Positions 4,178 through 32,242 of a DNA stretch of 44,855 bases are shown here, piece by piece (within the stretch, counting starts at the first letter, position 1; each line of letters starts with the position of its first letter). A model generated the notes under the pieces. The model searched no databases. It was not told the DNA's origin and was given only the letters and a program-made list of their open reading frames with translations. Origin of the DNA: a phage; the NCBI GenBank assembly GCA_012164735.1, contig GCA_012164735.1_4544.1. One strand, 5' to 3'. Made by a program: the position numbers and the translations under genes.

Positions 4178-4746
4178 AATTACTATTCCGCCGTAAATCA
4201 GATGGCTATATCCTGAAGCCGATCCAGACCTTATCGAACTGGGTACGCCTCCACCACGTTGCAAGCGATAAAGTCTGGTGGGCGACTAAGGCAAAGCTGC
4301 CGGAGTACTACGAAATCCTCACACACGATATCGAGCACGGCGATGTGCTGCGTGATATTCGCGACGGGCAGTTGTGGGTCGTGGAATACACCTACCGGCA
4401 CGGCCTGCGTATGACGTCCCGCAAGGATGGCGTAGCGGGCAACATGGTCAAGGGCATGACGTACTTCGGGCTAATCAACTACGAACGAGTGGGCCGCAAG
4501 TACAGCAAGCGTGACCACCAGCCACATGAGCGCGTTGATTTCCGCAAGTCCCAGCCGGAATATGCGACCTACGACGCAAGCAAAGCGCAGGGTGCTATTC
4601 GCCAGGCCGCACATGAAATCGTCAATCGCTTTGATGCCGTGGCGAACGCCCAGCGCATGGCCCGTGACTACGGCGTGGCTTTCATCCGCGTGGAATACGA
4701 CGGCAGCATTACCGCAGTTCACCCGCAGAAGATTATCCAGAAATGA
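4174..4746 (+). CDS. Hypothetical protein, tandem paralog family (GDVLRD ... LWVV ... INYERVGR motifs) with C-terminal extension
   Basis: 190-aa ORF; ATGA overlap with upstream gene. Confidence 0.55.
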   Translation: MKLLFRRKSDGYILKPIQTLSNWVRLHHVASDKVWWATKAKLPEYYEILTHDIEHGDVLRDIRDGQLWVVEYTYRHGLRMTSRKDGVAGNMVKGMTYFGLINYERVGRKYSKRDHQPHERVDFRKSQPEYATYDASKAQGAIRQAAHEIVNRFDAVANAQRMARDYGVAFIRVEYDGSITAVHPQKIIQK

Positions 4747-4883
4747 GTGCGACTATCCGGGATATGCTCATGCATAACCGCTTTGAGATAGGCGGGCGAG
4801 TGTTCTGCAATTACTTCGTGGCGCGTGCTTTGGCGCGCCATATCGGAAAACCAGAAGGGGAAATACGATGCTACACGATTTGA
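4743..4883 (+). CDS. Small hypothetical protein (46 aa), translationally coupled
   Basis: ATGA overlap with upstream stop; not in ORF track because under 60 aa; hand-translated. Confidence 0.3.
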   Translation: MSATIRDMLMHNRFEIGGRVFCNYFVARALARHIGKPEGEIRCYTI

Positions 4884-5155
4884 TATATTGGTTTGGTTTG
4901 GCCTGCGGACTATGCCTGATTACGGCGGTGCTGGGCGCAATATGGGTATTCCTGGTATGGCCTGCGATGGAAGCTGCCAGCATTACCCGGATGACGTTCC
5001 AGATATACAAGCGCCGAGGCATAACGGAACACCCGACCAGGTTGCGCATGTGGTGGCTATGGTATCTGGATATGATTGGGGGCCGAAGGTTTGAGGCCGT
5101 CCGGTCATCCGGGTGGGAATGGAAAGGCGTAGGCAAGTGGTCCATTTTCGATTAA
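4868..5155 (+). CDS. Small membrane protein (hydrophobic N-terminus)
   Basis: 95-aa ORF, RBS aagggg, predicted TM segment LIYWFGLACGLCLITAVLGAIWVFLVW. Confidence 0.4.
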   Translation: MLHDLIYWFGLACGLCLITAVLGAIWVFLVWPAMEAASITRMTFQIYKRRGITEHPTRLRMWWLWYLDMIGGRRFEAVRSSGWEWKGVGKWSIFD

Positions 5156-5172
5156 ATATGCAAGCGTGATAT

Positions 5173-5207
5173 AGTCCCAGTGAGCTAAAACTTACTGGGA
5201 CTTTTTT
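5173..5207 (+). terminator. Rho-independent terminator
   Basis: Stem agtcccagt/actgggact with 12-nt loop followed by T5-6. Confidence 0.55.
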
Positions 5208-5498
5208 ATGGATAAGCTAAACGAGTGGTTATTCGCCCTCGCGTGTCTTGCAGGTGGCTTCGTTGGCGCTCGCATTCACGGGGAGGCAACGAAAGGGCCG
5301 CTAAACTTTGTGTTGTTTATCGTGGTCGGCTTCTTGTGTGCCGTGTTCGGTGCACCGGCTATTGCTGAGTGGTTTAATCTAACCGGACCGAGAACGGTTG
5401 CCGGTCTTGGCTTCGTTACTGCCATCTTCTGGATGCCGGTAGCTGCCAGAATCCGAGAAGCAATTTCCTCGTTCCGTCTGCCGGGGGGTGCAAAATGA
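5208..5498 (+). CDS. Holin candidate (multi-TM small membrane protein)
   Basis: 96 aa, several hydrophobic segments; directly upstream of second membrane protein and the endolysin. Confidence 0.45.
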   Translation: MDKLNEWLFALACLAGGFVGARIHGEATKGPLNFVLFIVVGFLCAVFGAPAIAEWFNLTGPRTVAGLGFVTAIFWMPVAARIREAISSFRLPGGAK

Positions 5499-5737
5499 TT
5501 ATCGCCATCCTGTTATTAGTGATCGGGGCTTCGTCGCTGTATAACGTATACGCGCCATCCGTCCAGGATGGCATTTGCGGACGGGTGCTCTACTTGCTTA
5601 CAGCAATGACCTGTATTATTGGCCTGATGCAAACGGGGGACGTATCGAATACAGTCTGGTCCGTGCTAATCTGGCTATTCGCATTGCGCACGCTGCGTAA
5701 TGCGGTTTTAAATGGGGTAAAACATGCGATTCAGTGA
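5495..5737 (+). CDS. Holin/antiholin candidate (small membrane protein)
   Basis: 80 aa, two hydrophobic segments, overlaps neighbours by 4 and 14 nt. Confidence 0.45.
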   Translation: MIIAILLLVIGASSLYNVYAPSVQDGICGRVLYLLTAMTCIIGLMQTGDVSNTVWSVLIWLFALRTLRNAVLNGVKHAIQ

Positions 5738-6215
5738 CAACGGTCTAAGATTTACGGCAGCCTGGGAGTCATTCAGCCCGGTGCCGTATTTCGCGACTAA
5801 GAAAGAGCAGGCCCGCGGCCTGTATACCTGGGGCTATGGTCATACTGGCACTAATCCGCCGCGGAGCATTACCCGCGCGGAAGCGCTGGATCTACTCAAG
5901 CGTGATGTGGCGTATGCTGAGAACTGGGTGAACAAGTACGCGCATTCGAGTATCAATCAGGCGCAATTCGACGCGCTGGTGGACCTGGTAATCAATGCCG
6001 GTCAGGGTCCAATCGTACCGGACAACATTGCCAACGACTTCGATGACGCGGTGCGCCTGGGTGACTGGGCGAAAGTCCGTGCTACACTGCCACAATTCCG
6101 CAAGCAAGGCGGTGAAGTGCTCAAGGGTCTGGTCCGTCGTGCAATCGGCAGACAGGCGCTATTCGATGGTAAGCAGTGGGACGTTGCCGAGAAAATCGGG
6201 CGTAACGCAGCATAA
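5724..6215 (+). CDS. Endolysin, lysozyme-like (GH24-type glycosidase)
   Basis: 163 aa; E ... GLYTWGYGHTG resembles T4-lysozyme-type catalytic Glu plus GYGH motif. Confidence 0.7.
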   Translation: MRFSDNGLRFTAAWESFSPVPYFATKKEQARGLYTWGYGHTGTNPPRSITRAEALDLLKRDVAYAENWVNKYAHSSINQAQFDALVDLVINAGQGPIVPDNIANDFDDAVRLGDWAKVRATLPQFRKQGGEVLKGLVRRAIGRQALFDGKQWDVAEKIGRNAA

Positions 6216-6230
6216 TACGAGGAACACAGT

Positions 6231-6398
6231 ATGTTAAAAAGCATTCTTGATCATAACGCGGACGCGCTTGCCGCACTGGCTAAAACCGAAGACCCAGGCG
6301 CACGCGCCATTATCGCGGACACAATCAGTCATGCGGGTGTCTTTGACGCGAAGCTGCCAAGCCCGCCACCGCCGGAAGAACCAGGCCCAGCGGCCTAA
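6231..6398 (+). CDS. Small hypothetical protein (55 aa, Pro-rich C-terminus)
   Basis: RBS gagga 7 nt upstream; followed by terminator; hand-translated. Confidence 0.35.
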   Translation: MLKSILDHNADALAALAKTEDPGARAIIADTISHAGVFDAKLPSPPPPEEPGPAA

Positions 6399-6404
6399 CC
6401 ACGC

Positions 6405-6430
6405 AAGCCCGGCTAATGTCGGGCTTTTTA
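6405..6430 (+). terminator. Rho-independent terminator
   Basis: Stem aagcccg/cgggctt, loop 8 nt, T-run. Confidence 0.55.
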
Positions 6431-6494
6431 TTGCTTGACTTGCAACCAACACAGAGGCCATACTGCAACCAATCAACGAGAGGAGTAACACACT

Positions 6495-6575
6495 ATGACA
6501 CGCAATGATATTTATGTACTGGCAATCTGGTCCGCCGCCGCATTCATCGGTATGGTTATTTGCGAATTGCTATAG
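6495..6575 (+). CDS. Candidate micro-ORF encoding a 26-aa hydrophobic peptide
   Basis: Strong RBS gagaggag 7 nt upstream of ATG; sequence MTRNDIYVLAIWSAAAFIGMVICELL; downstream of paired GCAACCAAT motifs. Confidence 0.3.
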   Translation: MTRNDIYVLAIWSAAAFIGMVICELL

Positions 6576-6636
6576 CCCGCCGCCATAGGGACCGTGGTAT
6601 ATTGTCCCCGGACCCATAATCAGGAAGTAAATTAAT

Positions 6637-7779
6637 ATGCACCCTCAAACTAAAATTACCGACGAGCAATTGATCGCTGAATTGCAATCTGGCACTACCT
6701 CGAAAGATATTGCGAAGAAATACGGCATTGCCCTTCGAAATGTCTATATGCGCAAAGCCCGCCTGTCGAAGAAAGGCATTGGACACGGCAACGATGCTGT
6801 AATCCGCAAGCGCGTTGCCGATGGCTTCGGCGTTAAGCGTGTATCAGCCCTGGTGCGCGGCAATGGCGAAGAGGTCATGTCCTGGGTCATCACCGAGCAG
6901 GACAAGGAGCGCCAACTTGAAGCAATGCGCGCCGTTGTCGAGGGTATGAACAGCGAAATCACACCGGCAGCACCAGTGAGCGCTCCGCCAGTCCCGATCC
7001 AGGCGCTTGACCTGCTTAACCTGTATACCGTGTCAGACTTCCACCTGGGAATGTTGGCGTGGGGCGAGGAGACTGGCGAGGACTGGGATATGGCAATCGC
7101 CGAAGACCTTTTTTACCGCTGGTTTGTCGAAGCCTTCGCCCGCGCGCCGGACGCTGGCACTGCTGTAATCAATATCCTCGGTGATATGGCCCACTTTGAC
7201 AGCCTTGACGCCGTCACGCCAGCCAGTGGTCACGTACTGGATGCCGATACCCGCTACCAGAAGTTGGTCCGCTACATGATTCGCATGGTGCGCAACGTGG
7301 TTGAACTGGCGCTGCAAAAACACCATAAGGTCAAACTGCTAATCGTCCAGGGTAATCATGATGAGTCCGGTATGATTTGGCTGGCTGAAATGTTCAATAC
7401 CCTGTACGAGAACGAGCCACGCGTCGATGTTGACACGTCACCTGACGTCTACAAAATGGTGCAGCACGGTAAGACAACGCTGTTCTTCCACCACGGACAC
7501 AAGGCACGCTTTGACGCCATCGAACCGGTCATGATTTCTAAATTCAGACAGGCTTTCGGGTCCAGTGAGTACAGCTACGCGCACGTAGGCCACTTGCACC
7601 ACCAGAAGATTGTTGAATCCCGCAACATGATTGTTGAACAGCACCGGACCCTTGCCGCGAAAGACGCATACGCAAGCCGCGGCGGTTGGATGTCCGGTCG
7701 CAGTGCAAACGTCATCACCTATAGCGCCAACTACGGCGAAGTAGCGCGCTTAACCATTAGCCCGGAAATGTTGAAATGA
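6637..7779 (+). CDS. Metallophosphoesterase (Mre11/SbcD-like motifs) with N-terminal HTH-like region
   Basis: 380 aa; motifs VSDFHLG, ILGDMAHFD, VQGNHDE, HHGHK typical of calcineurin-like phosphoesterases; RBS aggaag. Confidence 0.6.
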   Translation: MHPQTKITDEQLIAELQSGTTSKDIAKKYGIALRNVYMRKARLSKKGIGHGNDAVIRKRVADGFGVKRVSALVRGNGEEVMSWVITEQDKERQLEAMRAVVEGMNSEITPAAPVSAPPVPIQALDLLNLYTVSDFHLGMLAWGEETGEDWDMAIAEDLFYRWFVEAFARAPDAGTAVINILGDMAHFDSLDAVTPASGHVLDADTRYQKLVRYMIRMVRNVVELALQKHHKVKLLIVQGNHDESGMIWLAEMFNTLYENEPRVDVDTSPDVYKMVQHGKTTLFFHHGHKARFDAIEPVMISKFRQAFGSSEYSYAHVGHLHHQKIVESRNMIVEQHRTLAAKDAYASRGGWMSGRSANVITYSANYGEVARLTISPEMLK

Positions 7780-7988
7780 TTAGACAAGTATTCATGAGCA
7801 CGCAGGCCACCCGCCTGAAAGAGCTTCGCAAACAGCTTGAAGGCTTGCGCCGATTCGAACGAACGGCAGCGGCAATAGGCATGTCTATCAGTGAGCGGAT
7901 CGAGATACTATCGCAAATACGCTACACAGAAGGCGCTATAAGCGAAGTTGAAAGCATGTTGACCAGATACTACGGTCGCGCCGTTTAA
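7776..7988 (+). CDS. Hypothetical protein
   Basis: 70-aa ORF overlapping upstream stop (ATGA). Confidence 0.4.
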   Translation: MIRQVFMSTQATRLKELRKQLEGLRRFERTAAAIGMSISERIEILSQIRYTEGAISEVESMLTRYYGRAV

Positions 7989-7995
7989 CCCTCCC

Positions 7996-8021
7996 AGCCC
8001 GCCGATTTGGTGGGCTTTTTT
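7996..8021 (+). terminator. Rho-independent terminator
   Basis: Stem agcccgcc/ggtgggct (one G-U), T6. Confidence 0.5.
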
Positions 8022-8026
8022 GTGCC

Positions 8027-8035
8027 TGTTATAAT
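8027..8035 (+). promoter_or_regulatory. Extended -10 promoter candidate (TGtTATAAT) upstream of terminase genes
   Basis: TG at 8027-8028, TATAAT at 8030-8035. Confidence 0.4.
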
Positions 8036-8105
8036 CCCCCTTAGATGGCTGGGCCGTCTCCTATGTTGCCGATGGTCGGCGCATATGCATAAAAGGGCTT
8101 ATATC

Positions 8106-8657
8106 ATGGCAGAAATCAAAGTTAAGGGCCGTCGTGCCAAACTGGACGGTCGAGTAGCAGTTACCCCGCGCCGTAAACCAGGCGAGCAAACAGAACACAC
8201 CAATCTTGGACCCGAGATCGAATACGGCAAGCGTCGTAAAGGCGGCAAATGTGGACGCCCGACCGACTACCGCACCGTGTATTGTGATCAGCTTCGTCGC
8301 TATTTCGCCGATGCCGTAGCCTGGCAGATCAACTACTCTGACAAGGGTGCTGCGCAAGTCATCCCTCACAACAAGATGCCGACTCTCGGTCGCTTTGCTG
8401 CGGATATTGGCGTTGGCATCGCTTGCCTGTACCGCTGGGCGCGTGCACATGAGGAGTTCGCCGAGGCGATGGCTGACGCAATGGAGTTGCAGAAAACTTT
8501 CTTGATGGAAGCTGGCGGTGTGACCATCGCGGCGGGCTTCGCTACGTTCCTGCTTAAAGCCAACCACGGCATTCGTGACGATGCGCCGCTGGATGACGAC
8601 GAAGGTGATAACGGCGACGTCGTTGTGGAACCTACCGGCAAAGGCCAGGGCGAATAA
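8106..8657 (+). CDS. Terminase small subunit (putative; start at ATG 8106 preferred over ORF-track start 8007)
   Basis: Immediately upstream of, and overlapping, the large terminase; RBS aaaggg; synteny. Confidence 0.5.
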   Translation: MAEIKVKGRRAKLDGRVAVTPRRKPGEQTEHTNLGPEIEYGKRRKGGKCGRPTDYRTVYCDQLRRYFADAVAWQINYSDKGAAQVIPHNKMPTLGRFAADIGVGIACLYRWARAHEEFAEAMADAMELQKTFLMEAGGVTIAAGFATFLLKANHGIRDDAPLDDDEGDNGDVVVEPTGKGQGE

Positions 8658-10042
8658 TGCGTAACTATGCGGCAGAACACCGCGCACTTGAACGCGCGAT
8701 CGCAAAGCGCAACCGACCGCCACGCCCTACGCGCGTTGCGCAGGCCGTCCGCCTGTATCAGCCTGATTGCCTACCGCACCAGGTGGAACTGCTGCGCGAC
8801 ACGAAGACTAAAATCCTCGGATTGTGTTCCGGCTTCGGTGGCGGAAAGTCGTGGGTCGCGGCGCGTAAGGTCATCCAGCTTCTCACACTTAACCCTGGTC
8901 ATGATGGCATCGTGACAGAACCGACTATTCCACTCCTGGTTAAAATCATGTACCCGGAGCTTGAGAAGGCTTTCGACGAGGCCGGATTCCGGTGGAAGTT
9001 CAACAAGCAAGATAAAATCTATAGCGTGCTGGTGAAAGGCAAATGGACCCGCGTTATTTGTGAGTCAATGGAGAACTACACCCGCCTGATCGGGGTTAAC
9101 GCCGCGTGGATTGTTGCCGATGAGTTCGACACCACGAAGCAAGACGTCGCTATGGCGGCTTACCACAAACTGCTTGGTCGTCTGCGTGCGGGCCTGGTAC
9201 GCCAGTTCGTCATCGTATCCACGCCTGAAGGCTTCCGGGCGATGTACCAGATTTTCGAAGTGGAGAAGGATAGCCAGAAACGTTTGATCAGGGCGAAGAC
9301 TACCGATAATCACCACTTACCGGCAGACTTTATCGACACGCTGCGCAGCCAATACCCGGCTAACCTGATTGATGCGTACTTGAACGGCCTGTTTGTCAAC
9401 CTTACGTCGGGCGCGGTGTACAAGATGTTCAACCGGGAGGAGAACGCCAGCACCGAAGAAGTGCAGCCGGAAGACACGCTGATTATCGGCATGGACTTTA
9501 ACGTCACGAAGATGGCGGCGGTCGTGTATGTCAGACGGCAGCGCATCACCGAAAACAAGGAGTTCCGCGACGAGATTCACGCAGTGGATGAATTTGTGGA
9601 CCTGTTTGATACCCCGGCTATGATTGAGGCGATCGAGGAGCGATACCCCGAACATTGTGCCGCCGGTAGGGTCGTCGTTTACCCGGATAGCAGTGGCAAG
9701 TCTCGTAAGACTGTTAACGCATCGTCGTCCGATATTGCGCAACTGGAAGACGCGGGCTTCGAGGTGGAATACGACAGCGTTAACCCACCTGTGAAAGACC
9801 GATTGATCGCGATGAATACGATGATGTGCAACTCGAAGGGTGTGCGCCAGTATTTTGTCAACCTGGATAAATGCCCTACACTAGCGAAATGTCTGGAACA
9901 GCAGGTTTACGACCTGAAGAAAGGCGAGCCGGATAAAACCGCCGGTGTGGACCACATGAACGATGCCGCGGGCTATCCAATTGCGCACCTGTTCCCAGTG
10001 ATTCGCCCAATCGCCGTTGTTCCAACTGTAGACTTCTACTAA
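8657..10042 (+). CDS. Terminase large subunit
   Basis: 461 aa; Walker A-like GFGGGKSW; position before portal. Confidence 0.85.
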   Translation: MRNYAAEHRALERAIAKRNRPPRPTRVAQAVRLYQPDCLPHQVELLRDTKTKILGLCSGFGGGKSWVAARKVIQLLTLNPGHDGIVTEPTIPLLVKIMYPELEKAFDEAGFRWKFNKQDKIYSVLVKGKWTRVICESMENYTRLIGVNAAWIVADEFDTTKQDVAMAAYHKLLGRLRAGLVRQFVIVSTPEGFRAMYQIFEVEKDSQKRLIRAKTTDNHHLPADFIDTLRSQYPANLIDAYLNGLFVNLTSGAVYKMFNREENASTEEVQPEDTLIIGMDFNVTKMAAVVYVRRQRITENKEFRDEIHAVDEFVDLFDTPAMIEAIEERYPEHCAAGRVVVYPDSSGKSRKTVNASSSDIAQLEDAGFEVEYDSVNPPVKDRLIAMNTMMCNSKGVRQYFVNLDKCPTLAKCLEQQVYDLKKGEPDKTAGVDHMNDAAGYPIAHLFPVIRPIAVVPTVDFY

Positions 10043-10052
10043 GGAAACGACT

Positions 10053-11573
10053 ATGACCGTTAACGTTGACAACCAGCACCCGCTCTATGCGCGCATCGCG
10101 CCTGAGTGGAAAATGATCCGTGATTGCGTGGCAGGTGAGCGCGCCGTGAAGGCGTGCGGCCCCTTATACCTTCCACACCCAGCCAGTGGCGACAACACTG
10201 ACCCGAAAGCACGGGCGCGATACAAGGCGTATAAGCAACGCGCTGTATTCCTGAACGCCACCGCCCGCACACTTAACGCGCTGTTAGGCGTTGCCTTTGC
10301 TAAACCGGTAAGTCTGGACCTTTCCGGGGCGATGGCTGACCTGATTGACGACGTAGACGGCAGCGGGATGCCACTGCCACAACTCCTGCGCGGTGCTATG
10401 TCTGAAGTGCTGCAATCGGGACGTGCGGGCTTTATGGTCGACTACGACCGCCAGGCGCATTTTGATGAACTGGGTAACGTAGTGCCGCAGACCGCCGCCG
10501 AGATGGCGTCACACCGCCCGCTTATCCGCCTGTACACGGCAGAACAGATCATCAACTGGCGGCAGACCCACGGCGTCGATACGCTAATTGTGCTGAAGGA
10601 AACTGACGAAATCAGCACCGAAGACCCCGACGACTTCGCAAACCACGAAGTCACAATCTGGACTGAATTGCGCATGATTGACGGCAAGGCACACGCCCGC
10701 CGCTGGTTTTATAATGCGGACACGTCAGAAGTGCAAATGGACTTGCCGCGGGGATTCACCCGTACCGACCTTGTGCCACTGGTGGATGCTGCCGGTAACG
10801 CGCTTACGCAACTGCCTTTCTGTTGGTGTGGTGCGGTGGACAACAACGCAACGCCTGACGCCGCTCCGCTGGCGGATATCGCATCCATCAACATTAAGCA
10901 CTACAACGCCGAAGCGGACGTCGCCGAGATTGCGCACATCGTGGGCCAACCTACACTCATTGCGACTGGTCTGACCCAATCATGGGCGGACAAGAACCTG
11001 AAAGGAGGCATCGCGCTCGGGGCAACTAAGGGCGTTATCCTGGGCCAGAACATGGACGCCAAACTGCTTCAGGCGGAGGAGCGCAACTTGTCTGTTGCAC
11101 TGTGTGAGCGCCGCGAATTGCAAATGGCTAAACTGGGCGCGGCCCTTGTCGAGAAAGGGACCGCACCTAAGACGGCAACAGAGGCGGCTTATGATGCGCA
11201 GACTGATAACAGTATCCTGTCTCTGATTGCCGGTAACGTTGAGAAGGCTTTCAACCGTGCGCTGCAAATCGTCAAGCTGTTCACTGGCGACACCGCAGAT
11301 CAACGCGTAACGCTGAATAAGTTCTACACCGAAATCACGGTTGACGCACAGCTTATGACCGCAATGATGGCGGGTGTGCAGACCGGTACTGTCCGTCTGG
11401 CGGACTTTATCAAGTGGATGATGGCCCAGGGCGTTATTGATGACTCGCAAACCGTCGAGCAGGTGGAAGACGAACTGCGAAATCAGAATCCATTGCCTCA
11501 AATGTCCCCTGATGCGGTAGAATCTACCGAAGAAGACCCGGACAAGGTAGCGGACGATGGCGAGAACAATTAA
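10053..11573 (+). CDS. Portal protein
   Basis: 506 aa, strong RBS aagga, follows terminase; synteny. Confidence 0.7.
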   Translation: MTVNVDNQHPLYARIAPEWKMIRDCVAGERAVKACGPLYLPHPASGDNTDPKARARYKAYKQRAVFLNATARTLNALLGVAFAKPVSLDLSGAMADLIDDVDGSGMPLPQLLRGAMSEVLQSGRAGFMVDYDRQAHFDELGNVVPQTAAEMASHRPLIRLYTAEQIINWRQTHGVDTLIVLKETDEISTEDPDDFANHEVTIWTELRMIDGKAHARRWFYNADTSEVQMDLPRGFTRTDLVPLVDAAGNALTQLPFCWCGAVDNNATPDAAPLADIASINIKHYNAEADVAEIAHIVGQPTLIATGLTQSWADKNLKGGIALGATKGVILGQNMDAKLLQAEERNLSVALCERRELQMAKLGAALVEKGTAPKTATEAAYDAQTDNSILSLIAGNVEKAFNRALQIVKLFTGDTADQRVTLNKFYTEITVDAQLMTAMMAGVQTGTVRLADFIKWMMAQGVIDDSQTVEQVEDELRNQNPLPQMSPDAVESTEEDPDKVADDGENN

Positions 11574-12660
11574 TCAATATATGGCGGACCGCATGATCCG
11601 CCGACACATCTTCACCCAGCGCCTGAGTAATGACCAGGCGCGAAGGGTGCTGTCCATGTGGGAGAAGTTCCGGCCTACATTACTGGGAAAGCTGACCGAG
11701 TTGCTTGATGGCAAATCGTCAATGAACAACAAGGCACTTTCCACCCTGCTAACGCAAATCGACAAGACCGTAAAAACGGAACTGCGCACCGAGTTTAAGG
11801 CGTTGGCTGAAAGCCTTCAGGAGTTTGCAGACACGGAGGCTGATTATCTCGCCGACACATTAACGGCAGCGATCCAGCCGGTGGTCGCCGTACCTGCGGT
11901 CGAGGTGGTTGGTGTAGTGACCGGTGCGCAGATCGCAGCGACGGCTATGAAAAACCCGTTCCAGGGTAATACTATGATGCAATGGCCTGACTCACTTTCA
12001 GAGTGGACAAGGACGCAGATCGGTAACCAGGTGCGAGCGGGATTCATCCAGGGCAAGCCAACGATGGAAATTATTGCGGACGTGAGGCGCGCGCTAGGCG
12101 GTCGTAGTGCGCAAGCGATCTCAAGCGTCGTTAAGTCCGCGGTCAACCACTATGCGGCGACCGCCCGCGAATTAATGGTAAAAGCTAATGACGATATTCT
12201 CGAAGGCCGCCAATGGTTGGCTACATTGGACACGCATACTTCTCCCATGTGCCAGCTACGCGATCGCCTGTTTTATCCGGTTGATGTTACTCCCGACACC
12301 AAAGGAAAGCGCGGCGGGAAAGTGGTGGCTGGATCACAATATGGCGCTGGTCCGGGCAAGTTGCATTATTGCTGCCGTTCGACGGAGACGTGGAAAGTCA
12401 AAGGTATGGAAGATTGGCCCAGTGGTAAGCGTCCGGCACTGAAGGCTGACGCGGGTCGATTGCTTAGTGAGCAGGTCGACGCGCAGACTGATTTCTTCTC
12501 CTGGGTGCAGCGCCAGCCTCGCCATATTCTGGAGGAATTATATGGGGTGCAGCGCGCTGACCAGATTATGCGCGGCGTGAAAGTGCCGAAGATGTTTACC
12601 GATTCTGGCGAACTGATGACTATCGCACAGCTTAAAAACCGGGGGTTATGGCGTGATTAA
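11557..12660 (+). CDS. Head morphogenesis protein (Mu F / SPP1 gp7-like)
   Basis: 367 aa following portal; synteny. Confidence 0.6.
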   Translation: MARTINQYMADRMIRRHIFTQRLSNDQARRVLSMWEKFRPTLLGKLTELLDGKSSMNNKALSTLLTQIDKTVKTELRTEFKALAESLQEFADTEADYLADTLTAAIQPVVAVPAVEVVGVVTGAQIAATAMKNPFQGNTMMQWPDSLSEWTRTQIGNQVRAGFIQGKPTMEIIADVRRALGGRSAQAISSVVKSAVNHYAATARELMVKANDDILEGRQWLATLDTHTSPMCQLRDRLFYPVDVTPDTKGKRGGKVVAGSQYGAGPGKLHYCCRSTETWKVKGMEDWPSGKRPALKADAGRLLSEQVDAQTDFFSWVQRQPRHILEELYGVQRADQIMRGVKVPKMFTDSGELMTIAQLKNRGLWRD

Positions 12661-12982
12661 ATATGCAGCGATTGGGCTGGTTATCGGTCTGGCGGTAGGA
12701 TTCTGGCTAGGTGACTCCTATCGCGCTGGCGTAGTGGCGGAGGCGGCGCAAGAAGCGCAAGCCGAAGCCCAACGGCAGCAAACTAAAGTTGTTGAGCGCT
12801 CCGTGCAGGCAGAACAGGCCCGCGACGTAGAATACCGGACTATCACGAAAGAGGTTGTTAAATATGTTACGCGCCCTAACCGCCCTGATTGTAGTTTTGA
12901 TTCTGAGCGCGTGCGGATCAAGCAACGTGCCGTTGATGCCGCTAACGGAGTCGGCACTGCGACCGCCGTGCAAGTTCGATAG
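12653..12982 (+). CDS. i-spanin (Rz-like): N-terminal TM anchor plus coiled-coil periplasmic domain; GTG start
   Basis: MIKYAAIGLVIGLAVGFWLG TM segment then Ala/Gln/Glu-rich helix; embedded lipoprotein gene in +1 frame. Confidence 0.55.
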   Translation: MIKYAAIGLVIGLAVGFWLGDSYRAGVVAEAAQEAQAEAQRQQTKVVERSVQAEQARDVEYRTITKEVVKYVTRPNRPDCSFDSERVRIKQRAVDAANGVGTATAVQVR

Positions 12983-13094
12983 CCCGTCCGCAGACCCCGA
13001 CGAGGATTTGATGATTGACGTGAAAAATATGGAATGCGGGGCGAAGCTAAGGGCGCAGGTGCTGGAGTTGCAGCAAATAATTAAGGGGCCGTAA
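12864..13094 (+). CDS. o-spanin (Rz1-like outer-membrane lipoprotein), overlapped with and extending beyond the i-spanin gene
   Basis: MLRALTALIVVLILSAC lipobox (LSAC), Pro-rich mature part; RBS agagg; ATG 12864 in frame with ORF-track TTG start at 12855. Confidence 0.55.
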   Translation: MLRALTALIVVLILSACGSSNVPLMPLTESALRPPCKFDSPSADPDEDLMIDVKNMECGAKLRAQVLELQQIIKGP

Positions 13095-13107
13095 TGGCCC
13101 CTTTTTC
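13084..13107. terminator. Bidirectional rho-independent terminator between convergent genes
   Basis: Stem aggggcc/ggcccct, loop gtaat, T5 on plus; A/T flank on minus. Confidence 0.6.
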
Positions 13108-13108
13108 G

Positions 13109-13873
13109 TTATCGCGGAATACCGCAAATCTCGTTGAGAGTTTTCACATCCAGCGCCACCGCCGTGGATTTTGGCTTGTCCGGGTATGGGATGAATTGCT
13201 CAACTTCAGGCCATGCCTTAATCAGCTTTTTGTCAGTATTGTGCAGATCCAGCACACCGGTAACGGTGAGTTTGAACGCATCATACTTCGCGCGCAACTC
13301 GCGACGGGCCTTGTCGTTACGGTCCAGGCGCTTACAGAAGTCGTGGTCTGCCGGGTAGTCCGCGCGACAGCGCGGCTTATAGATCGGCAGCGCTTTCCCG
13401 TCCTCGTCCACTTCGCACACAGAAGCCAGCATTACTTCTTCGTACCCTGGTACAATATCGCCGAGATCGGGAGATAGCTTATTCATGTATTTATATTCCC
13501 AGTATCCGCGATGTACTCGGTATTGTCGTCCGTCGCCGCTCAATGACAGTGTGCGCACATTTCCGCCTGCGTTGATTTCGAAAGTGGCGTCGTAAACGCT
13601 GCCGATGCCTTTTGGGCGGTCAGCGTTATAACTATACGTCGCCTTGTTGGTGTATACGCTTACTCCGTACATCTGCGACGGGTTATCGCCGATTGCTTTA
13701 ATGCGCGCGAGTAGCTCGGCGAAAGTGCGAATGCCTTCCGGCATACAGTCCAGCGTAATGGCGTACGCCAGGTCGCGCGAGTCCATCATGATGGATTTGG
13801 CTTCGGTCGCGATTTCATGGTCGCGCAGGATGTTAGCCAGAATCCGGTTTTTAATGTCTTTCGTCAGTCTCAT
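13109..13873 (-). CDS. Hypothetical protein (254 aa) encoded opposite to the structural operon
   Basis: ATG with RBS gagga; no recognisable domain by inspection. Confidence 0.6.
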   Translation of the reverse strand: MRLTKDIKNRILANILRDHEIATEAKSIMMDSRDLAYAITLDCMPEGIRTFAELLARIKAIGDNPSQMYGVSVYTNKATYSYNADRPKGIGSVYDATFEINAGGNVRTLSLSGDGRQYRVHRGYWEYKYMNKLSPDLGDIVPGYEEVMLASVCEVDEDGKALPIYKPRCRADYPADHDFCKRLDRNDKARRELRAKYDAFKLTVTGVLDLHNTDKKLIKAWPEVEQFIPYPDKPKSTAVALDVKTLNEICGIPR

Positions 13874-25139: not shown

Positions 25140-25747
25140 CCACATTTAAATTGTACGGCGTCTTAGGACGTCGTTTTGGTAAAGTGCATAAGCTGGACTG
25201 CTTCACACCTGGCGAGGGTATCACCGGCCTATGCGTGAAGTTGCCAGGCTTACAGGACTTTCTAATGTCGGCCCACCTGGAAAACATGATGTTCAAGGTG
25301 CGCAAGGGTAATCACACAATGACCGGCTACGACGAGTTGGGTGAGTTCCACGGCGACCGCGTAGTTACCATCGCGCCGGTTATGACTGGTGCTAAAAGCG
25401 GACTTGGACAATTGCTGGCTGGCGTAGCTATCGTGGTGGCGTCGTTCTACACTGGCGGGCTTGCCGCTGCCGCTTTCGGGGCTTCCGCTGCGACCGCCGC
25501 CGCTATCGGAACGGCGACGTTTTCGTTCGGTATGTCGCTTGCGCTGGGCGGCGCTATGCAATTGCTGTCACCGCAACCGAAAGGATTGCAGACACGGCAG
25601 GACGTGGATAACAAGGCGTCGTATGCGTTCGGCGGGCCGGTAAACACGACCGCGCAAGGCACAGCACTTGGTGTATTATGGGGCGAGCGTGAGATCGGCG
25701 GCGCTATTATTTCAGCCGGAATTGTAACCGAGGATTTGAACGAATGA
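25130..25747 (+). CDS. Tail assembly protein (lambda I-like)
   Basis: 205 aa with Gly/Ala-rich hydrophobic C-terminal half; synteny. Confidence 0.7.
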   Translation: MAMTTFKLYGVLGRRFGKVHKLDCFTPGEGITGLCVKLPGLQDFLMSAHLENMMFKVRKGNHTMTGYDELGEFHGDRVVTIAPVMTGAKSGLGQLLAGVAIVVASFYTGGLAAAAFGASAATAAAIGTATFSFGMSLALGGAMQLLSPQPKGLQTRQDVDNKASYAFGGPVNTTAQGTALGVLWGEREIGGAIISAGIVTEDLNE

Positions 25748-28700
25748 CGATTATCTACGACGTCACGGGCCATAAAGGCGGCGGTGGCAAACAGCACACC
25801 CCACAGGAGACGCCTGATAGCCTGCATTCGCTGGCTAAAATCCGCATCTTGCTCGCACTGGGCGAGGGCGAATTTGAAGGCATCCCCGACCCTAACGAAT
25901 TACGGCAGCGTGTATACCTGGACGGCACACCGATCCAGAACGCCGACCTGTCGGATAACTTCCCCGGCGCGCGCGTGGAGTTCCGCCCCGGCACGCAGCA
26001 CCAGGATGTGATTCACGGTTTTTCAGCGGTGGAAAGCGAGCAAACAGTAGGCGTAAAACTGGAACAGGGACAGCCGTGGGTCCGCCAGATTTCGGACACC
26101 AGTCTGGACGCGGTGCGTATTCGAATCGGTATTCCGGCCCTGTACACCAACGAAGATAACGGCGACCTGGTGGGCGGGCGCATCGACTATAAAATCGTTG
26201 TGTATACAGATAACGCCGATCCGCGCGAGTTCACATTCGCTGCCGTTGGTAAAACAATGTCGCTGTACGAGCGAGATCACCGCATCGAATTACCGTCTAA
26301 CGTTAACACCGGCTGGCGCGTGGAGGTGATCCGCACAACGGCAGACTCCACATCGGCGAAAGTGGTCAACGATATCCAGGTACAATCCATTACTGAGATT
26401 ATCGACGCCCGCCTGCGATACCCGCTAACCGCGCTGTTGTTCGTGGAGTTCGATGCTAAGGCGTTCCAGAACATCCCGCGTGTGTCCATCAAGTGCAAAG
26501 GCCGCAAAGTGCTGGTCCCGAACAACTATGACCCCGTGAATCATACCTATTCTGGTAACTGGGACGGCACATTTAAACGCGCCTGGACGGATAACCCTGC
26601 GTGGCACTGGTACGATATTTGTATTACTGAGCGCTTCGGCCTCGGTCGTCGTGTCAAACCACAAATGCTAAACCGTTACGCGCTCTACCAGATTGCGCAG
26701 CGCTGCGACCAGATGGTCAGTGACGGCAACGGCGGTCAGGAAATCCGATTTAAGAATGATATGTACATTCAATCGCAGACCGACGCCTGGACCGTGCTGA
26801 AGGATTTAGCGGCTATCTTTGCCGGTATGACCTGGTGGGGCAACCAGATGCTGAATATCGTCAGTGATCAGCCGGTCGCAGCGGTATCGCATACTATCAC
26901 CAACGCCTCGGTTATTGATGGTCGATTCGACTACGCATCGGGGAGCCAGAAAACTCGGTATTCCACGTTCTCGGTAGCCTACGGCAACCCGAAAAACCAT
27001 TACGAGGACGCCATCGCAACGGGCCAGCGTGTCGAACTGGTGCGCCGCCATAAGATTAACCGCCTTGATATTACGGCGATCGGCTGTACGCGTGAATCTG
27101 AAGCGCAACGCCGCGGACACTGGGCGCTAATCTCCAACCAGCTTGATCAGCAAGTTAGCTTTAAGGTTGGCATGGAGGGGTTATTCTTTATTCCGGGGAG
27201 CGTAGTCGCGATCGCAGATACTAACATTTCTGGCGGCTTCGAGACACGCGGCGGACGTCTGTTGTCAGATCCGGGCACGCGCACCGTGCTGAACACGGAC
27301 AGCGAAATCACGTTCCGCCCTGGCGATAAATTCCTGGTGCGCACCGATAGCGGTAATGTGGAGACTCGCGAGATTGCCAGCGTCAACGGCAACCAGGTCA
27401 CGCTAAAAACCGCACTGGACGCCGACCCAATTCCTGATCAGCCGTTTTGCGTTGATGGCGATGATATCCAGTTGCAGAAGTTCCGCATCACCGACCTGGA
27501 ATATGACGACGCTACCAGCACTTTCTCGGTGCGCGGGATTGAGTACAATGACAGCAAATATGATGCCGTTGATAATGGCGCGCGTCTTGATCCGGGTATC
27601 TTCACGCAAGTGCCGGACGGTGTAATGAAGGGGCCAGAATCCGTTACCATCACCCCGTCGCAGATCTCATCACAAGGCCAGCTAATCACCAACGTGGATA
27701 TTGTTTTTCCGCCGGTGAAGGATGCCGTTGTGTACGAAATCCAGTGGCGACGTACCAGCTTGCAGAATCTGGAAATCCAGTGGGGCAACGACTGGGTTAA
27801 CATCCCCCGCACGGCGTCGAATGGTGCGCATATCCCGAACGTGTTTTCTGGTAACTACCAGGCACGCGTCCGCGCTATCGGTATGGGCGAGATTTCATCC
27901 CCGTGGGTGTCGTCCGCCATCACGCCGGTGGAGGGTCGTCTTGGTGGGCTTAACGCGCCTATCATCACCAACGCGATTTCGGGCCTTCACCAAATTTTGT
28001 GGAAGTGGAATCACAACAACGCCGCAACGGATATTTCGTATACCGAGCTTGAAGTACGCAAGCTGGGCGAAACGGAATGGAAATTCCTAACCAACGTCCC
28101 ATATCCGGGGTCGGACTATGCGCAAACGTCGCTGGAGTTCGGGGTCTACCAGCAGTTGCGCGCACGCGTAGCGGATAAAATCGGCAACCTGTCAGACTGG
28201 TCCGATCCGTTCGACGGGCAGGTGAGTGACAAAGTTGACGAGTACATGCAGGGGCTTGATGACGAGTTCTTGACTTCCGAGGACGGTAAACACTTCCAGG
28301 AAGCAATCGACACCATTCCGCAAGGCATCTATGAGTCAATGCTTACGGACGCCCAGCAGTTATTCAACGCCCGCGCCGAGTATAAAGGGATTTATGCAGA
28401 AATTACGGTGGCGTATAACGTGGCGGCGGACGCTCACGAAGCCGTAGCGCAACTGGAAACGTTAATCGGCACGCGCCTTGACGACGCCGAAGCGTCAATC
28501 CACACGTTGCAGACCGCGCAAAGCACGCATGAGCAAGCATTCGCCCAGTACCAACAAACTGTTGCCGCTAAGTTCGGGGAGCAGGAAGCTGCCATCCAGC
28601 AGGTACAAACGGCAACGGCAGACGTAGCGGGCGCGCTGGCGGAGTATAAGACCCAGGTCGCGGCACAGTTCGGTCAGCAGTCCGCAGCTATCGAGCAGAA

Positions 28701-29190
28701 GATGACGTCCTCGTTTAACCATGCTGGCGGTAGCGCCACATACAGCCTTAAGGCTGGCGTGACGTATAACGGGACTTACTATGATGCCGGTATGCAGCTT
28801 TCCGTCGTGGCGGAAGGTGGCGCGGTTAAATCACGCATCGCGTTCAAGGCGGACCAGTTCTACATCATGCACCCATCTAACGGGTCGCTCTCGTCCGCGT
28901 TTATCGTTGACGGCGGGCAGGTGTATATTGACACGGCACGCATCAAGAACGCGTCTATTAACTTCGCGCAGATCACGGACACGCTGCAATCCAATAACTG
29001 GAATCCAGGTAACAGCGGCTGGCGTATCGCGAAGGATGGCGGGGCGGAGTTCAACAACGTTACGGTACGCGGCAACTTGTTCGCAACTACGGGTAACTTT
29101 GGATTCTCCGGCGGGTCAGTGACTATCGACGCAACGGGCGTCAACGTGCCATTACCTGGAGGGGGCAGGGTGAAAGTCGGGACGTGGTAA
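25744..29190 (+). CDS. Tail tip / host specificity protein (lambda J-like central fiber)
   Basis: 1148 aa following the I-like gene. Confidence 0.85.
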   Translation: MTIIYDVTGHKGGGGKQHTPQETPDSLHSLAKIRILLALGEGEFEGIPDPNELRQRVYLDGTPIQNADLSDNFPGARVEFRPGTQHQDVIHGFSAVESEQTVGVKLEQGQPWVRQISDTSLDAVRIRIGIPALYTNEDNGDLVGGRIDYKIVVYTDNADPREFTFAAVGKTMSLYERDHRIELPSNVNTGWRVEVIRTTADSTSAKVVNDIQVQSITEIIDARLRYPLTALLFVEFDAKAFQNIPRVSIKCKGRKVLVPNNYDPVNHTYSGNWDGTFKRAWTDNPAWHWYDICITERFGLGRRVKPQMLNRYALYQIAQRCDQMVSDGNGGQEIRFKNDMYIQSQTDAWTVLKDLAAIFAGMTWWGNQMLNIVSDQPVAAVSHTITNASVIDGRFDYASGSQKTRYSTFSVAYGNPKNHYEDAIATGQRVELVRRHKINRLDITAIGCTRESEAQRRGHWALISNQLDQQVSFKVGMEGLFFIPGSVVAIADTNISGGFETRGGRLLSDPGTRTVLNTDSEITFRPGDKFLVRTDSGNVETREIASVNGNQVTLKTALDADPIPDQPFCVDGDDIQLQKFRITDLEYDDATSTFSVRGIEYNDSKYDAVDNGARLDPGIFTQVPDGVMKGPESVTITPSQISSQGQLITNVDIVFPPVKDAVVYEIQWRRTSLQNLEIQWGNDWVNIPRTASNGAHIPNVFSGNYQARVRAIGMGEISSPWVSSAITPVEGRLGGLNAPIITNAISGLHQILWKWNHNNAATDISYTELEVRKLGETEWKFLTNVPYPGSDYAQTSLEFGVYQQLRARVADKIGNLSDWSDPFDGQVSDKVDEYMQGLDDEFLTSEDGKHFQEAIDTIPQGIYESMLTDAQQLFNARAEYKGIYAEITVAYNVAADAHEAVAQLETLIGTRLDDAEASIHTLQTAQSTHEQAFAQYQQTVAAKFGEQEAAIQQVQTATADVAGALAEYKTQVAAQFGQQSAAIEQKMTSSFNHAGGSATYSLKAGVTYNGTYYDAGMQLSVVAEGGAVKSRIAFKADQFYIMHPSNGSLSSAFIVDGGQVYIDTARIKNASINFAQITDTLQSNNWNPGNSGWRIAKDGGAEFNNVTVRGNLFATTGNFGFSGGSVTIDATGVNVPLPGGGRVKVGTW

Positions 29191-30185: not shown

Positions 30186-30407
30186 TTACCACTCCCGTGA
30201 TTTAACTGATACAGTACCTGAGAAATTGCCGTCGCTATCGGCAGATAGGCCAGTGAAGCGCATGTCCACGCCTCCGGCAGGGACTTTTTGCCCGTCAACA
30301 TAACGCAACATGCAGCTTCCGTAAGCCACCGTAATGCAATCACCGTTGTTGCGTTCTACGGCACAACCGGACAAAAGAACAGCACAAATCATAATTAAAG
30401 TTTTCAT
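30186..30407 (-). CDS. Small lipoprotein (73 aa), candidate superinfection-exclusion protein (Cor/Llp-like)
   Basis: MKTLIMICAVLLSGC signal peptide with lipobox LSGC; strong RBS aggag; location between tail tip and fiber genes. Confidence 0.6.
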   Translation of the reverse strand: MKTLIMICAVLLSGCAVERNNGDCITVAYGSCMLRYVDGQKVPAGGVDMRFTGLSADSDGNFSGTVSVKSREW

Positions 30408-30487
30408 GTTATCATCTCCTATATTTGGTTGAGTTTTAGTATTACACCGCTCGATCAAGAATGCAACCAATTTATGAGGATTTAGCT

Positions 30488-32242
30488 ATGGCAGCGGGTA
30501 CACTATCCGTAACGAATAACAGCACCGCGGTGACTGGAGACGGCACAACGCTTACCGCGCTGAAGGCGGGCGACTTCCTGTCGCTGGTAGTAGGGCAAGT
30601 CCCTTACACTATTGCTATTGCATCCATTGAGAGCGACACCGCGCTTACACTGGCGCTGCCGTTCGACGGCCCAACGGCAACCGGCCTCGCATGGGATAGC
30701 GTGGCGCGCGATACCATGTCCCTTGCAACGATGGGCGTAACCGTCCAGGCGCAGAAAGCACTACGCTTGATGATCGCGGATGAGAACAACTGGCGCGCAA
30801 TCTTCGGCGACGATGAAGAAATCACAGTGACGTTACCTAACGGGCAGGTTATGCAGGGCATGTCATGGGGCTATCTGTCACAGTTGATGAAACAGATCGA
30901 CCCCGTTGAGATGCGCAACCTGCAACAACAAGCCGCCGCATCTGAAGCAGCCGCGCAAGGATTTCGTAACGAGGCTGAAGGATTTCGAGACGGCGCGCAA
31001 GGATACCGCAACGAGGCGCTCCAATTCCGCACCGACTGCGAAGGGCTGAAGAACGAAACGACAAACCTTCGCAACGATGCGCTCCAATTCCGCACCGACT
31101 GCGAAGGGCTGAAGAACGAAACGACAAACCTTCGCAACGATGCTAACACAGCTAAGACTGGCGCGGAGACGGCACGCGATCAGGCGCAGAACATCGCCGA
31201 CGGTATGGACCCTGGACAGTATATGCAGAAATCTGCAAACCTGAGCGATGTAGTGGATAAGGCGCAAGGCCGCGCGAATATGGGTCTTGGCACTACAGAT
31301 GCCGTGGAGTTTGGTGGGGCCACCCTCAATGGTCCCACCCGCATCAATGGCTCGTTGCTGTTGGGGCGTAACCAGTGGGATGGGTCTAGCTGGGGGGTCT
31401 ACGGACTACAATCGTCATTCGTCATCATGTCGCCGGATGGAGACTCCGAGCCGGGATTTTACATCAGGCCGCTATCGGGTGCGCCTGGGTACGCAACGTC
31501 GTTCACCTATAATCTCGCGATTAATCTTTTCAGCACCGGTGCTCGCATCAAGGCGGTTAACTTCGCATCCAGCACTACGACTATGGGATATAACGAGATG
31601 TGGTCACGTGCATGTTTCCAGGGGCAGCCATACGAAGCCCAGGCGGGGGTTGAGAACTACCAATCGCTTGTCGCAGGTACTTGCGGTACGGTATCACACG
31701 GATTTTACGGTGGCGTTGCGTTCGGCATGATGACTGCTGGCAGGGCTGGGTGGCCTGTCGGTCAGATCTCGATCGGCACGCAGGACAGAGCCGCTGACGG
31801 CACTATCGGATTACAAATGCACTTCCGTTTCCATGCATCCGGTAACATTACGTATACGGGGCCGGCGGGGAAGGGGTCATTCCAGCGAATCCCGGCATCT
31901 GACCGCAACATTAAGCATGATATTAAAGACGATAAATCCAGCACAGCATACGATAACATTCGAGCCATTCGATTCCGTAATTTCGTATTTAATGATGACG
32001 AGCAGGAGCGTATTCGTCGCGGGGTTATCGCACAGGAGCTTGAAGAAATCGACCCGCTTTATGTTAAGCACCGCGAATACCACAACATGGAGCTTAACGG
32101 GCCGAAGATTACGCGACTGGAGCTTGACACGACGCCGCTGTTACTGGACACAATGCGAGCGTTGCAGGATACGATTAAGCAGGTGGAGGAGTTGAAGGCG
32201 GAGATCGCGGCGTTGAAGCAGGCGGAAGAGTTGAAGAAATAG
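30488..32242 (+). CDS. Tail fiber with coiled-coil repeat region and C-terminal intramolecular chaperone (self-cleaving, peptidase S74-like) domain
   Basis: Start at ATG 30488 with RBS gagga; 63-bp perfect tandem repeat 31018-31143; C-terminal SDRNIKHDIKD motif from 31898. Confidence 0.75.
   Translation: MAAGTLSVTNNSTAVTGDGTTLTALKAGDFLSLVVGQVPYTIAIASIESDTALTLALPFDGPTATGLAWDSVARDTMSLATMGVTVQAQKALRLMIADENNWRAIFGDDEEITVTLPNGQVMQGMSWGYLSQLMKQIDPVEMRNLQQQAAASEAAAQGFRNEAEGFRDGAQGYRNEALQFRTDCEGLKNETTNLRNDALQFRTDCEGLKNETTNLRNDANTAKTGAETARDQAQNIADGMDPGQYMQKSANLSDVVDKAQGRANMGLGTTDAVEFGGATLNGPTRINGSLLLGRNQWDGSSWGVYGLQSSFVIMSPDGDSEPGFYIRPLSGAPGYATSFTYNLAINLFSTGARIKAVNFASSTTTMGYNEMWSRACFQGQPYEAQAGVENYQSLVAGTCGTVSHGFYGGVAFGMMTAGRAGWPVGQISIGTQDRAADGTIGLQMHFRFHASGNITYTGPAGKGSFQRIPASDRNIKHDIKDDKSSTAYDNIRAIRFRNFVFNDDEQERIRRGVIAQELEEIDPLYVKHREYHNMELNGPKITRLELDTTPLLLDTMRALQDTIKQVEELKAEIAALKQAEELKK

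Follow-up and report, generated by a model that had tools for sequence, protein, structure and literature searches.

This study concerns the lysis genes of a phage represented by a 44,855-nt stretch of DNA (GenBank assembly GCA_012164735.1, contig GCA_012164735.1_4544.1), hereafter called the window. These genes lie in two places. A holin-holin-endolysin block occupies positions 5208-6215, and two overlapping spanin genes, one for a predicted inner-membrane subunit (i-spanin) and one for a predicted outer-membrane lipoprotein (o-spanin), occupy 12653-13094, after the terminase, portal and head-morphogenesis genes. From the endolysin stop to the i-spanin start the distance is 6437 nt, in line with the roughly 6.5 kb given in an earlier note on this DNA. 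Positions 5000-13500 matched 158 phage records; in 96 of them the match extends over 80% or more of the query, with a nucleotide identity of 90-94%. The matching records are nearly all Escherichia/Shigella siphophages of the genus Dhillonvirus (HK578-like), and by sequence similarity the source phage is a Dhillonvirus, an HK578-like coliphage.

The two lysis loci

The first holin-like gene (5208-5498, plus strand; 96 aa) matches phrog_2359 ‘holin’ (E=1.8e-32) and carries that label in the phages Pandora71, HH3 and Sponge. The second (5495-5737, plus strand; 80 aa), which overlaps its neighbors by 4 and 14 nt, matches phrog_2508 ‘holin’ (E=6e-25). Both genes adjoin the endolysin gene and encode membrane proteins with several hydrophobic segments, features that together with the PHROG matches make each a candidate holin, antiholin or partner protein. 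The endolysin (5724-6215, plus strand; 163 aa) is of the GH24, T4-lysozyme type, matching PF00959 (Phage_lysozyme; E=3.2e-21, 76.4 bits against a cut-off of 22.3) and phrog_7 (E=2.1e-35). Since this match is accompanied by no hydrophobic N-terminus, and a hydropathy scan of the protein revealed no hydrophobic window, signal or signal-anchor-release (SAR) segment, the enzyme is assigned to the canonical soluble type. The earlier note had described two small membrane proteins and a GH24 lysozyme at this locus, and the positions of the open reading frames (ORFs) and their PHROG and Pfam matches bear this out.

No spanin accompanies this block. The 55-aa product of the neighboring orf55 (6231-6398, plus strand) belongs to phrog_11068, a family of unknown function, and is not a spanin: it has no transmembrane segment, lipobox or Cys. 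Moreover, no lipobox ORF is present in any frame between 4800 and 6700. On these grounds, a unimolecular spanin of the T1 gp11 type beside the endolysin was rejected. A second spanin or another outer-membrane disruptor near the endolysin was likewise rejected, after a six-frame lipobox scan of the whole window and hydropathy analysis of orf55 and of a 95-aa protein encoded at 4868-5155. The earlier statement that no spanin stands beside the endolysin thus agrees with the hydropathy of orf55 and the six-frame scan, and a spanin next to the endolysin, looked for throughout the 44.9-kb window, was not seen.

The i-spanin gene (12653-12982, plus strand; 109 aa) has a GTG start, 5′ of which lies a GGGGG Shine-Dalgarno sequence, and shares its first 8 nt with the end of the head-morphogenesis gene, TAA stop included. 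Its product has one N-terminal transmembrane segment (about residues 1-19, Kyte-Doolittle peak 1.9) and no other hydrophobic segment, and it matches phrog_2536 ‘Rz-like spanin’ over residues 1-108 (E=1.4e-36); the segment and the match both uphold the membrane protein that had been proposed at 12653. We infer a type II orientation, with an N-terminal anchor and a periplasmic C-terminal domain. A single-sequence AlphaFold model places helices at residues 5-72 and 84-97, the first including the transmembrane segment and the second, shorter one following a Pro-rich linker with Cys80. Because the confidence of this model is low (predicted local distance difference test, pLDDT, 61.5), it is used only as a hint of secondary structure.

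The o-spanin gene overlaps the i-spanin gene by 119 nt at a frame offset of +1, which places the pair in the ‘overlapped’ class. Called mechanically, its ORF opens at TTG 12855, and an AGAGG Shine-Dalgarno sequence lies at 12850-12854. Because AGAGG is 9 nt upstream of ATG 12864, while TTG 12855 directly abuts it, we place the start at ATG 12864. The gene then spans 12864-13094 (plus strand) and encodes a lipoprotein precursor of 76 aa, a size that matches the annotation in Oekolampad and Pandora71 and the listing for HK578. The signal sequence MLRALTALIVVLILSAC is followed by GS, with the lipobox LSAC, Cys17 as the predicted lipidation site and Gly at position +2. In Escherichia coli, the Lol-avoidance rule holds that Asp at +2 retains a lipoprotein in the inner membrane; because the residue here is Gly and not Asp, sorting to the outer membrane is predicted. 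Across six frames of the whole window, the lipobox scan found only two candidates, the o-spanin ORF (12855/12864-13094) and a minus-strand ORF at 30186-30407.

These results largely agree with what had been claimed for the lipoprotein. The scan and the coordinates support an LSAC lipoprotein in the +1 frame that overlaps the i-spanin and runs past its stop, and hydropathy and lipobox analysis, both proposed as checks in the earlier note, found the transmembrane segment and LSAC. For the ORF itself, frame and lipobox stand, and the start moves from 12855 to 12864 on the basis of Shine-Dalgarno spacing.

Conservation shows that the o-spanin frame is constrained. We compared a set of 20 Dhillonvirus sequences, made up of the window, 15 loci from IMG/VR and 4 phages from GenBank. 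All have an intact 76-codon +1 ORF, with no variation at the lipobox Cys or at two other cysteines. Nucleotide diversity (pi) at codon positions 1, 2 and 3 is 0.068, 0.035 and 0.202 in the part coding only for the i-spanin and 0.088, 0.025 and 0.210 in the part coding only for the o-spanin. Where the two genes overlap, diversity is lowest (0.033) at the nucleotide that serves as codon position 2 of the i-frame and position 1 of the o-frame, which is what dual coding would lead one to expect. Furthermore, Cys17, Cys36, Cys58 and a DEDL motif of the o-spanin are invariant in a seven-sequence alignment that includes relatives of 32-46% identity from Jerseyvirus, Kagunavirus and three environmental contigs; i-spanin relatives from the same sources keep Cys80 and the motif TITKEVVKY..P.R..C.

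Because the ORF is intact in every sequence of the set, its cysteines are invariant and diversity is in excess at third positions, the o-spanin frame is more than a product of chance. One could still suppose that it is an untranslated chance frame and that the outer membrane is disrupted another way, given that many GenBank records omit the o-spanin or annotate a short 3′ part of it (Sponge, HH3, WFI). This is extremely unlikely: the cysteines, Cys17 included, persist in other genera, the third-position excess is seen in the non-overlapping part, and the ATG has a good Shine-Dalgarno sequence at a suitable distance. The missing annotations, in turn, correspond to a general gene-caller artefact that leaves overlapped o-spanins unannotated (PMC6139136).

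Several GenBank/RefSeq records of relatives illustrate this. In the Salmonella Jerseyvirus vB_SenS-Ent1 (Ent1; locus L025, 6252-6500), gp08 is annotated from 6327, yet homology and the lipobox start at 6252. For Sponge (L002), only a 159-nt 3′ fragment of the o-spanin is annotated, and the records of HH3 (L003) and WFI (L028) omit it. We attribute these absent or 5′-truncated annotations to the bias of gene callers against overlapped genes described by Kongari et al. (PMC6139136).

Diverged spanin allele groups also occur within the genus. In L009, L015, L016, L017 and L024, identity to the window is 75-86% for the i-spanin, which is 7 aa shorter there, and 74-79% for the o-spanin. In four of these loci (L009, L015, L016 and L024), identity is 96-99% for the flanking genes, which encode the head-morphogenesis protein, the portal and TerL. 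Since the alleles have diverged while the genes around them have not, the spanin module appears to have been exchanged by recombination or to be evolving faster as a unit.

Spanin family and lysis role

Both spanins were searched against Pfam (E<=0.1), NCBIfam and PHROGs, and PHROGs is the only profile set that recognizes the pair. In addition to the i-spanin match given above, the o-spanin matches phrog_5672 (E=4.6e-26) and phrog_1267 (E=5.7e-11), and by these three families (phrog_2536, phrog_5672, phrog_1267) the pair shows the sequence similarity of the ‘Jersey’ spanin family. It also has the features of a two-component spanin, namely a transmembrane i-spanin, a lipoprotein o-spanin, a +1-frame overlap and predicted periplasmic cysteines (Cys80 in the i-spanin; Cys36 and Cys58 in the o-spanin). 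Hence the spanin pair placed at 12653-13094 by the earlier note finds support in the PHROG matches, the transmembrane segment and the lipobox. Its label ‘Rz/Rz1-type’ holds for topology and gene architecture and fails for the lambda Rz/Rz1 sequence families, of which neither Pfam nor NCBIfam detected a member here.

The pair is already represented in the literature. Kongari et al. 2018 (PMC6139136) assigned both subunits of HK578, EK99P-1, EP23, JL1, SSL-2009a and SO-1 to the ‘Jersey’ family of overlapped two-component spanins. Their supplement lists the HK578 i-spanin as HK578_005 (109 aa, 4569-4899) and the o-spanin as 76 aa at 4780-5011, with an overlap of 119 bp. The window pair has the same sizes, overlap and Shine-Dalgarno context (agcttaaaaaccGGGGGttatggc), belongs to the same genus and occupies the same slot after the head-morphogenesis gene. 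Protein identity to the HK578 pair is about 95%, as estimated through L010, which appears HK578-like; the few substitutions include A/T25 and changes in the transmembrane segment. Additionally, ‘i-spanin’ and ‘o-spanin’ (an equivalent 231 nt) are annotated directly 3′ of the minor capsid gene in the BASEL phage Oekolampad (NC_073089), and spanin annotations are present in HH3, SM_S22, Over9000, JLBYU37 and Pandora71.

More distant homologues come from Guernseyvirinae, Ent1 (gp07/gp08) and the Kagunavirus K1H (gp06/gp07). Their pairs are likewise overlapped, with 37-41% identity to the window for the i-spanin and 42-48% for the o-spanin. They lie between the head morphogenesis/decoration genes and the scaffold/major capsid genes, with a homologous holin-holin-endolysin block upstream of the terminase. 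They differ in having a decoration gene and a non-coding gap before the spanins, hence no overlap with the preceding gene, in their longer i-spanins (128 aa) and in other neighboring cargo genes.

With lambda Rz/Rz1, the pair shares a type II inner-membrane protein, an outer-membrane lipoprotein in the +1 frame, periplasmic cysteines and presumably the mechanism. However, Rz1 is fully embedded and the lambda pair directly follows holin S and endolysin R, whereas the window pair is overlapped and lies 6.4 kb away. The window i-spanin is also 44 aa shorter than Rz, with no predicted coiled coils and no detectable family match to it. As for position, the lysis genes of T7 are scattered, with the spanin pair 18.5/18.7 between the two terminase genes. 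T7 and T4 (pseT.3/pseT.2) are thus precedents for spanins away from the other lysis genes, but their sequence families are unrelated to the window pair, and the T7 pair is embedded and the T4 pair separated, while the window pair is overlapped. That lysis genes are usually contiguous, as the earlier note put it, holds as a general rule with known exceptions, since they are not clustered in T4-like phages (PMC6139136).

That the family acts in lysis is supported by the genomic context of two relatives. The environmental contig L021 carries members of phrog_2536 and phrog_5672 within a contiguous lambdoid cassette, in the order Q-like antiterminator, methyltransferase, holin, holin, endolysin and overlapped i/o-spanin, with TerS and TerL about 1.8 kb further on. 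In L023, a distant i-spanin relative lies about 1 kb 3′ of a GH24 endolysin. Given the L021 cassette on the one hand and the slot among head genes on the other, the spanin module has held different genomic positions in different phage lineages.

The L023 relative (8941-9444) is 167 aa long, has the motif TRTITKEVVKY and matches phrog_2536 at E=7.6e-13, although the 34% similarity is weak. Within it lies a fully embedded +1-frame lipoprotein ORF (MPKILTSAIAVLLLSSGC...). Judged by sequence, this hints that the phrog_2536 i-spanin family may include a member of embedded architecture; Kongari et al. 2018 (PMC6139136) did not observe this for families that mix architectures. A further i-spanin match, in L022, is weak and partial.

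Could the pair instead be a membrane protein and a lipoprotein with a role outside lysis, such as superinfection exclusion, receptor masking or head assembly? Some phage lipoproteins do act in exclusion, and the location among head genes, the lack of a lambda Rz/Rz1 Pfam match or predicted coiled coil and the presence of a second lipoprotein ORF in the window could all be read in this way. We nevertheless regard such a role as very improbable. The phage infects a Gram-negative host, and the lipobox scan leaves no other spanin candidate in its genome. The full spanin signature is also present, from the type II transmembrane protein to the overlapping +1-frame lipoprotein and the conserved periplasmic cysteines. 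Moreover, homologues fill the spanin slot right after the endolysin in the L021 lysis cassette, and the pair is curated as a spanin in the catalogue of the Young laboratory (PMC6139136).

The second lipobox ORF (30186-30407, minus strand) encodes 73 aa from its ATG (MKTLIMICAVLLSGC...) and is unrelated to the o-spanin. It lies between the central tail fiber gene (25744-29190) and a 593-aa tail-fiber-like gene (30461-32242), upstream of a 324-aa minus-strand ORF. Its position resembles that of Cor/Llp-type receptor-blocking exclusion lipoproteins, for which it is a candidate.

Gene order, transcription signals and distribution of the split

Between the two loci, the plus strand carries a metallophosphoesterase gene (‘DNA repair exonuclease’; 6637-7779, phrog_704) and, between this gene and a hairpin on the TerS side, a 70-aa ORF. 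TerS follows (start between 8007 and ~8100, end at 8657), then TerL (8657-10042), the portal gene (10053-11573) and the head-morphogenesis (minor capsid) gene (11557-12660; phrog_241 ‘head morphogenesis’, E=3e-116), all on the plus strand. The endolysin-terminase interval varies among relatives, and phage WFI annotates a 137-aa Big_2-domain protein in place of orf55. In Jerseyvirus and Kagunavirus, the tail region holds the metallophosphoesterase homologue, encoded on the other strand.

Past the spanins, the window carries a convergent gene with nucleotide modification associated domain 5 (Nmad5; 13109-13873, minus strand; PF18757, E=2.2e-57). It lies just past the terminator of the spanins, where the G+C content is lower (0.49-0.52). 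Since tblastn found no match to its product in 4 of 19 Dhillonvirus loci (L006, L010, L014 and L015), the gene looks like variable cargo that was inserted on the spanin side of the scaffold gene, between the two.

On the other side, immediately 5′ of the holin genes and set off from them by a strong terminator-like hairpin, lies the conserved gene for the 95-aa membrane protein (4868-5155, plus strand). The protein has one strong N-terminal transmembrane segment and belongs to phrog_2531, a family of unknown function. A homologue of 33% identity occurs in Ent1, 3′ of its endolysin block. A link of this protein to lysis regulation is possible, judging by its sequence and position.

Four terminator-like hairpins with 9-12-pair stems and T runs, described as intergenic, punctuate this region. 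The first (5173-5202, plus strand), with a 12-pair stem and a T run, lies just 5′ of the lysis cluster, the second (6405-6426, plus strand) closes the holin-holin-endolysin-orf55 block, and the third (7996-8016) lies 5′ of TerS. The fourth (13083-13103) consists of AAGGGGCC-GTAAT-GGCCCCTT followed by a T run on the plus strand; it encloses the o-spanin stop and abuts the Nmad5 gene, and its stem has no T-rich tail on the minus strand. Phage WFI has terminators annotated at positions homologous to the hairpins. A sigma-70 promoter scan placed no hit in 11368-12653, ahead of the spanin pair, and its total of promoter-like hits did not exceed that of shuffled sequence. The arrangement suggests two transcription units, the lysis block and a stretch from TerS to the o-spanin in which the spanins are the last cistrons; because neither promoter nor terminator scans were enriched over shuffled sequence, these units are inferred. 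Translation of the i-spanin may be coupled to that of the head-morphogenesis gene.

The split is shared by every Dhillonvirus locus long enough to show both blocks, although the distance between the blocks varies, the 1.1-kb phosphoesterase gene being absent from L011 and L013. The i-spanin itself is widespread: a tblastn search with it recovered 674 phage records, mostly of Salmonella and Escherichia phages. In Ent1, the order is TerS, TerL, portal, (amidase), head morphogenesis, decoration, spanin, spanin, scaffold and major head protein. The Ent1 holin-holin-endolysin genes (gp50-52) are found near the other end of the linear map; read across its ends, they precede the terminase genes. Identities between Ent1 and the window are 27% (gp50) and 37% (gp51) for the holins, 48% for the endolysin and 37% and 42% for the spanins. 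Kagunavirus K1H has its spanin pair in the same slot as Ent1.

Dhillonvirus, Jerseyvirus and Kagunavirus have the split in common, which marks it as a gene order that a large lineage of siphophages inherited long ago. A recent rearrangement specific to the genome in the window was rejected, the order being kept in 20 Dhillonvirus loci and two other genera. The ‘modular rearrangement’ suggested earlier is therefore apt in a deep evolutionary sense, as the L021 cassette and the head-gene slot show, and not as a feature of one genome. Nor is the layout new: phages of this group ordinarily have it, and it has been catalogued before. For example, the Dhillonvirus vB_EcoS_P78 has holins 31 and 32, endolysin 33 and, seven genes away, spanin 40 (PMC12677095), and the split has been described in words for the Kagunavirus fBC-Eco01 (PMC9825357).

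A functional reading of the same facts, in line with the different timing control suggested in the earlier note, is that placement among head genes gives the spanins a timing or dosage control distinct from that of the holins and endolysin, for example through earlier or stoichiometrically coupled accumulation, and that this is important. Hairpins 6405-6426 and 7996-8016 do separate the blocks, the i-spanin start overlaps the head-morphogenesis stop, and a placement conserved across genera could reflect selection. Inheritance, however, explains the conserved order equally well, and the inter-block distance is not conserved, as the loci without the phosphoesterase gene demonstrate. Furthermore, the two blocks share a strand and lie among late genes, and the spanin pair ends at a terminator. 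Lysis timing is set by the holin and not by the spanins, which accumulate and act only after the endolysin has removed the peptidoglycan, so that a separate timing role is unnecessary. We therefore consider important timing or dosage control unlikely, and favor inheritance as the explanation of the split.

Lysis model and meaning

We are confident that the window represents a Dhillonvirus with a complete, conventional four-step Gram-negative lysis system located in two places, and that the split between them is inherited and of no demonstrated functional meaning. Following the lambda and T4 paradigms (PMC6139136), the holin or holins would permeabilize the inner membrane at the programmed moment, letting out the soluble endolysin, which would then degrade the peptidoglycan. 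The spanins, probably expressed as the last cistrons of a late packaging/head unit running from TerS to the o-spanin, would by then be in place. The N-terminal transmembrane segment would hold the i-spanin in the inner membrane, its helical domain lying in the periplasm, and the o-spanin would be lipidated at Cys17 and sorted to the outer membrane. Their complex would be pre-assembled across the periplasm, probably disulfide-linked via the conserved cysteines. Freed by the loss of peptidoglycan, it would disrupt the outer membrane, probably through fusion of the two membranes.

Several points count against this account. The i-spanin is short, at 109 aa compared with 153 for Rz, and its single-sequence structural model has low confidence (pLDDT 61.5). 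The coiled coil that the earlier note had seen in it, a feature typical of i-spanins though not universal among them, is not supported: Pepcoil predicts zero coiled-coil regions in the HK578 orthologue (PMC6139136, Table S3), and the low-confidence AlphaFold model shows a long helix only. For neither spanin was there a match at E<=0.1 to the Pfam families Rz (Phage_lysis) and Rz1 lipoprotein, nor any match in NCBIfam. The literature searched contains no experiments on any member of this spanin family, and the functional statements made here about the pair all proceed by analogy with lambda Rz/Rz1 and T4 PseT.3/PseT.2. Finally, the terminator scan as a whole was not enriched, with 15 sites compared with 12.2 +/- 3.3 in shuffled sequence.

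Beyond this conventional account, it is conceivable, though quite improbable, that the conserved position of the pair has been selected, either to tie spanin dosage to head production or to uncouple spanin supply from the holin/endolysin transcript, and that the two diverged allele groups (74-86% identity, amid head genes of 96-99% identity) reflect co-evolving partner specificity between i- and o-spanins or adaptation to the host envelope. If this were true, a selected spanin position would be conserved from Dhillonvirus to Guernseyvirinae.

The value of the finding lies mainly in correct annotation, as the spanin pair completes the lysis system of this phage; no new biological principle is involved. 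Spanins should be sought genome-wide and not just beside the endolysin, the same module occurring in a classic lysis cassette in one lineage and among head genes in others. This knowledge is useful for the engineering of Dhillonvirus and Jerseyvirus phages for therapy.

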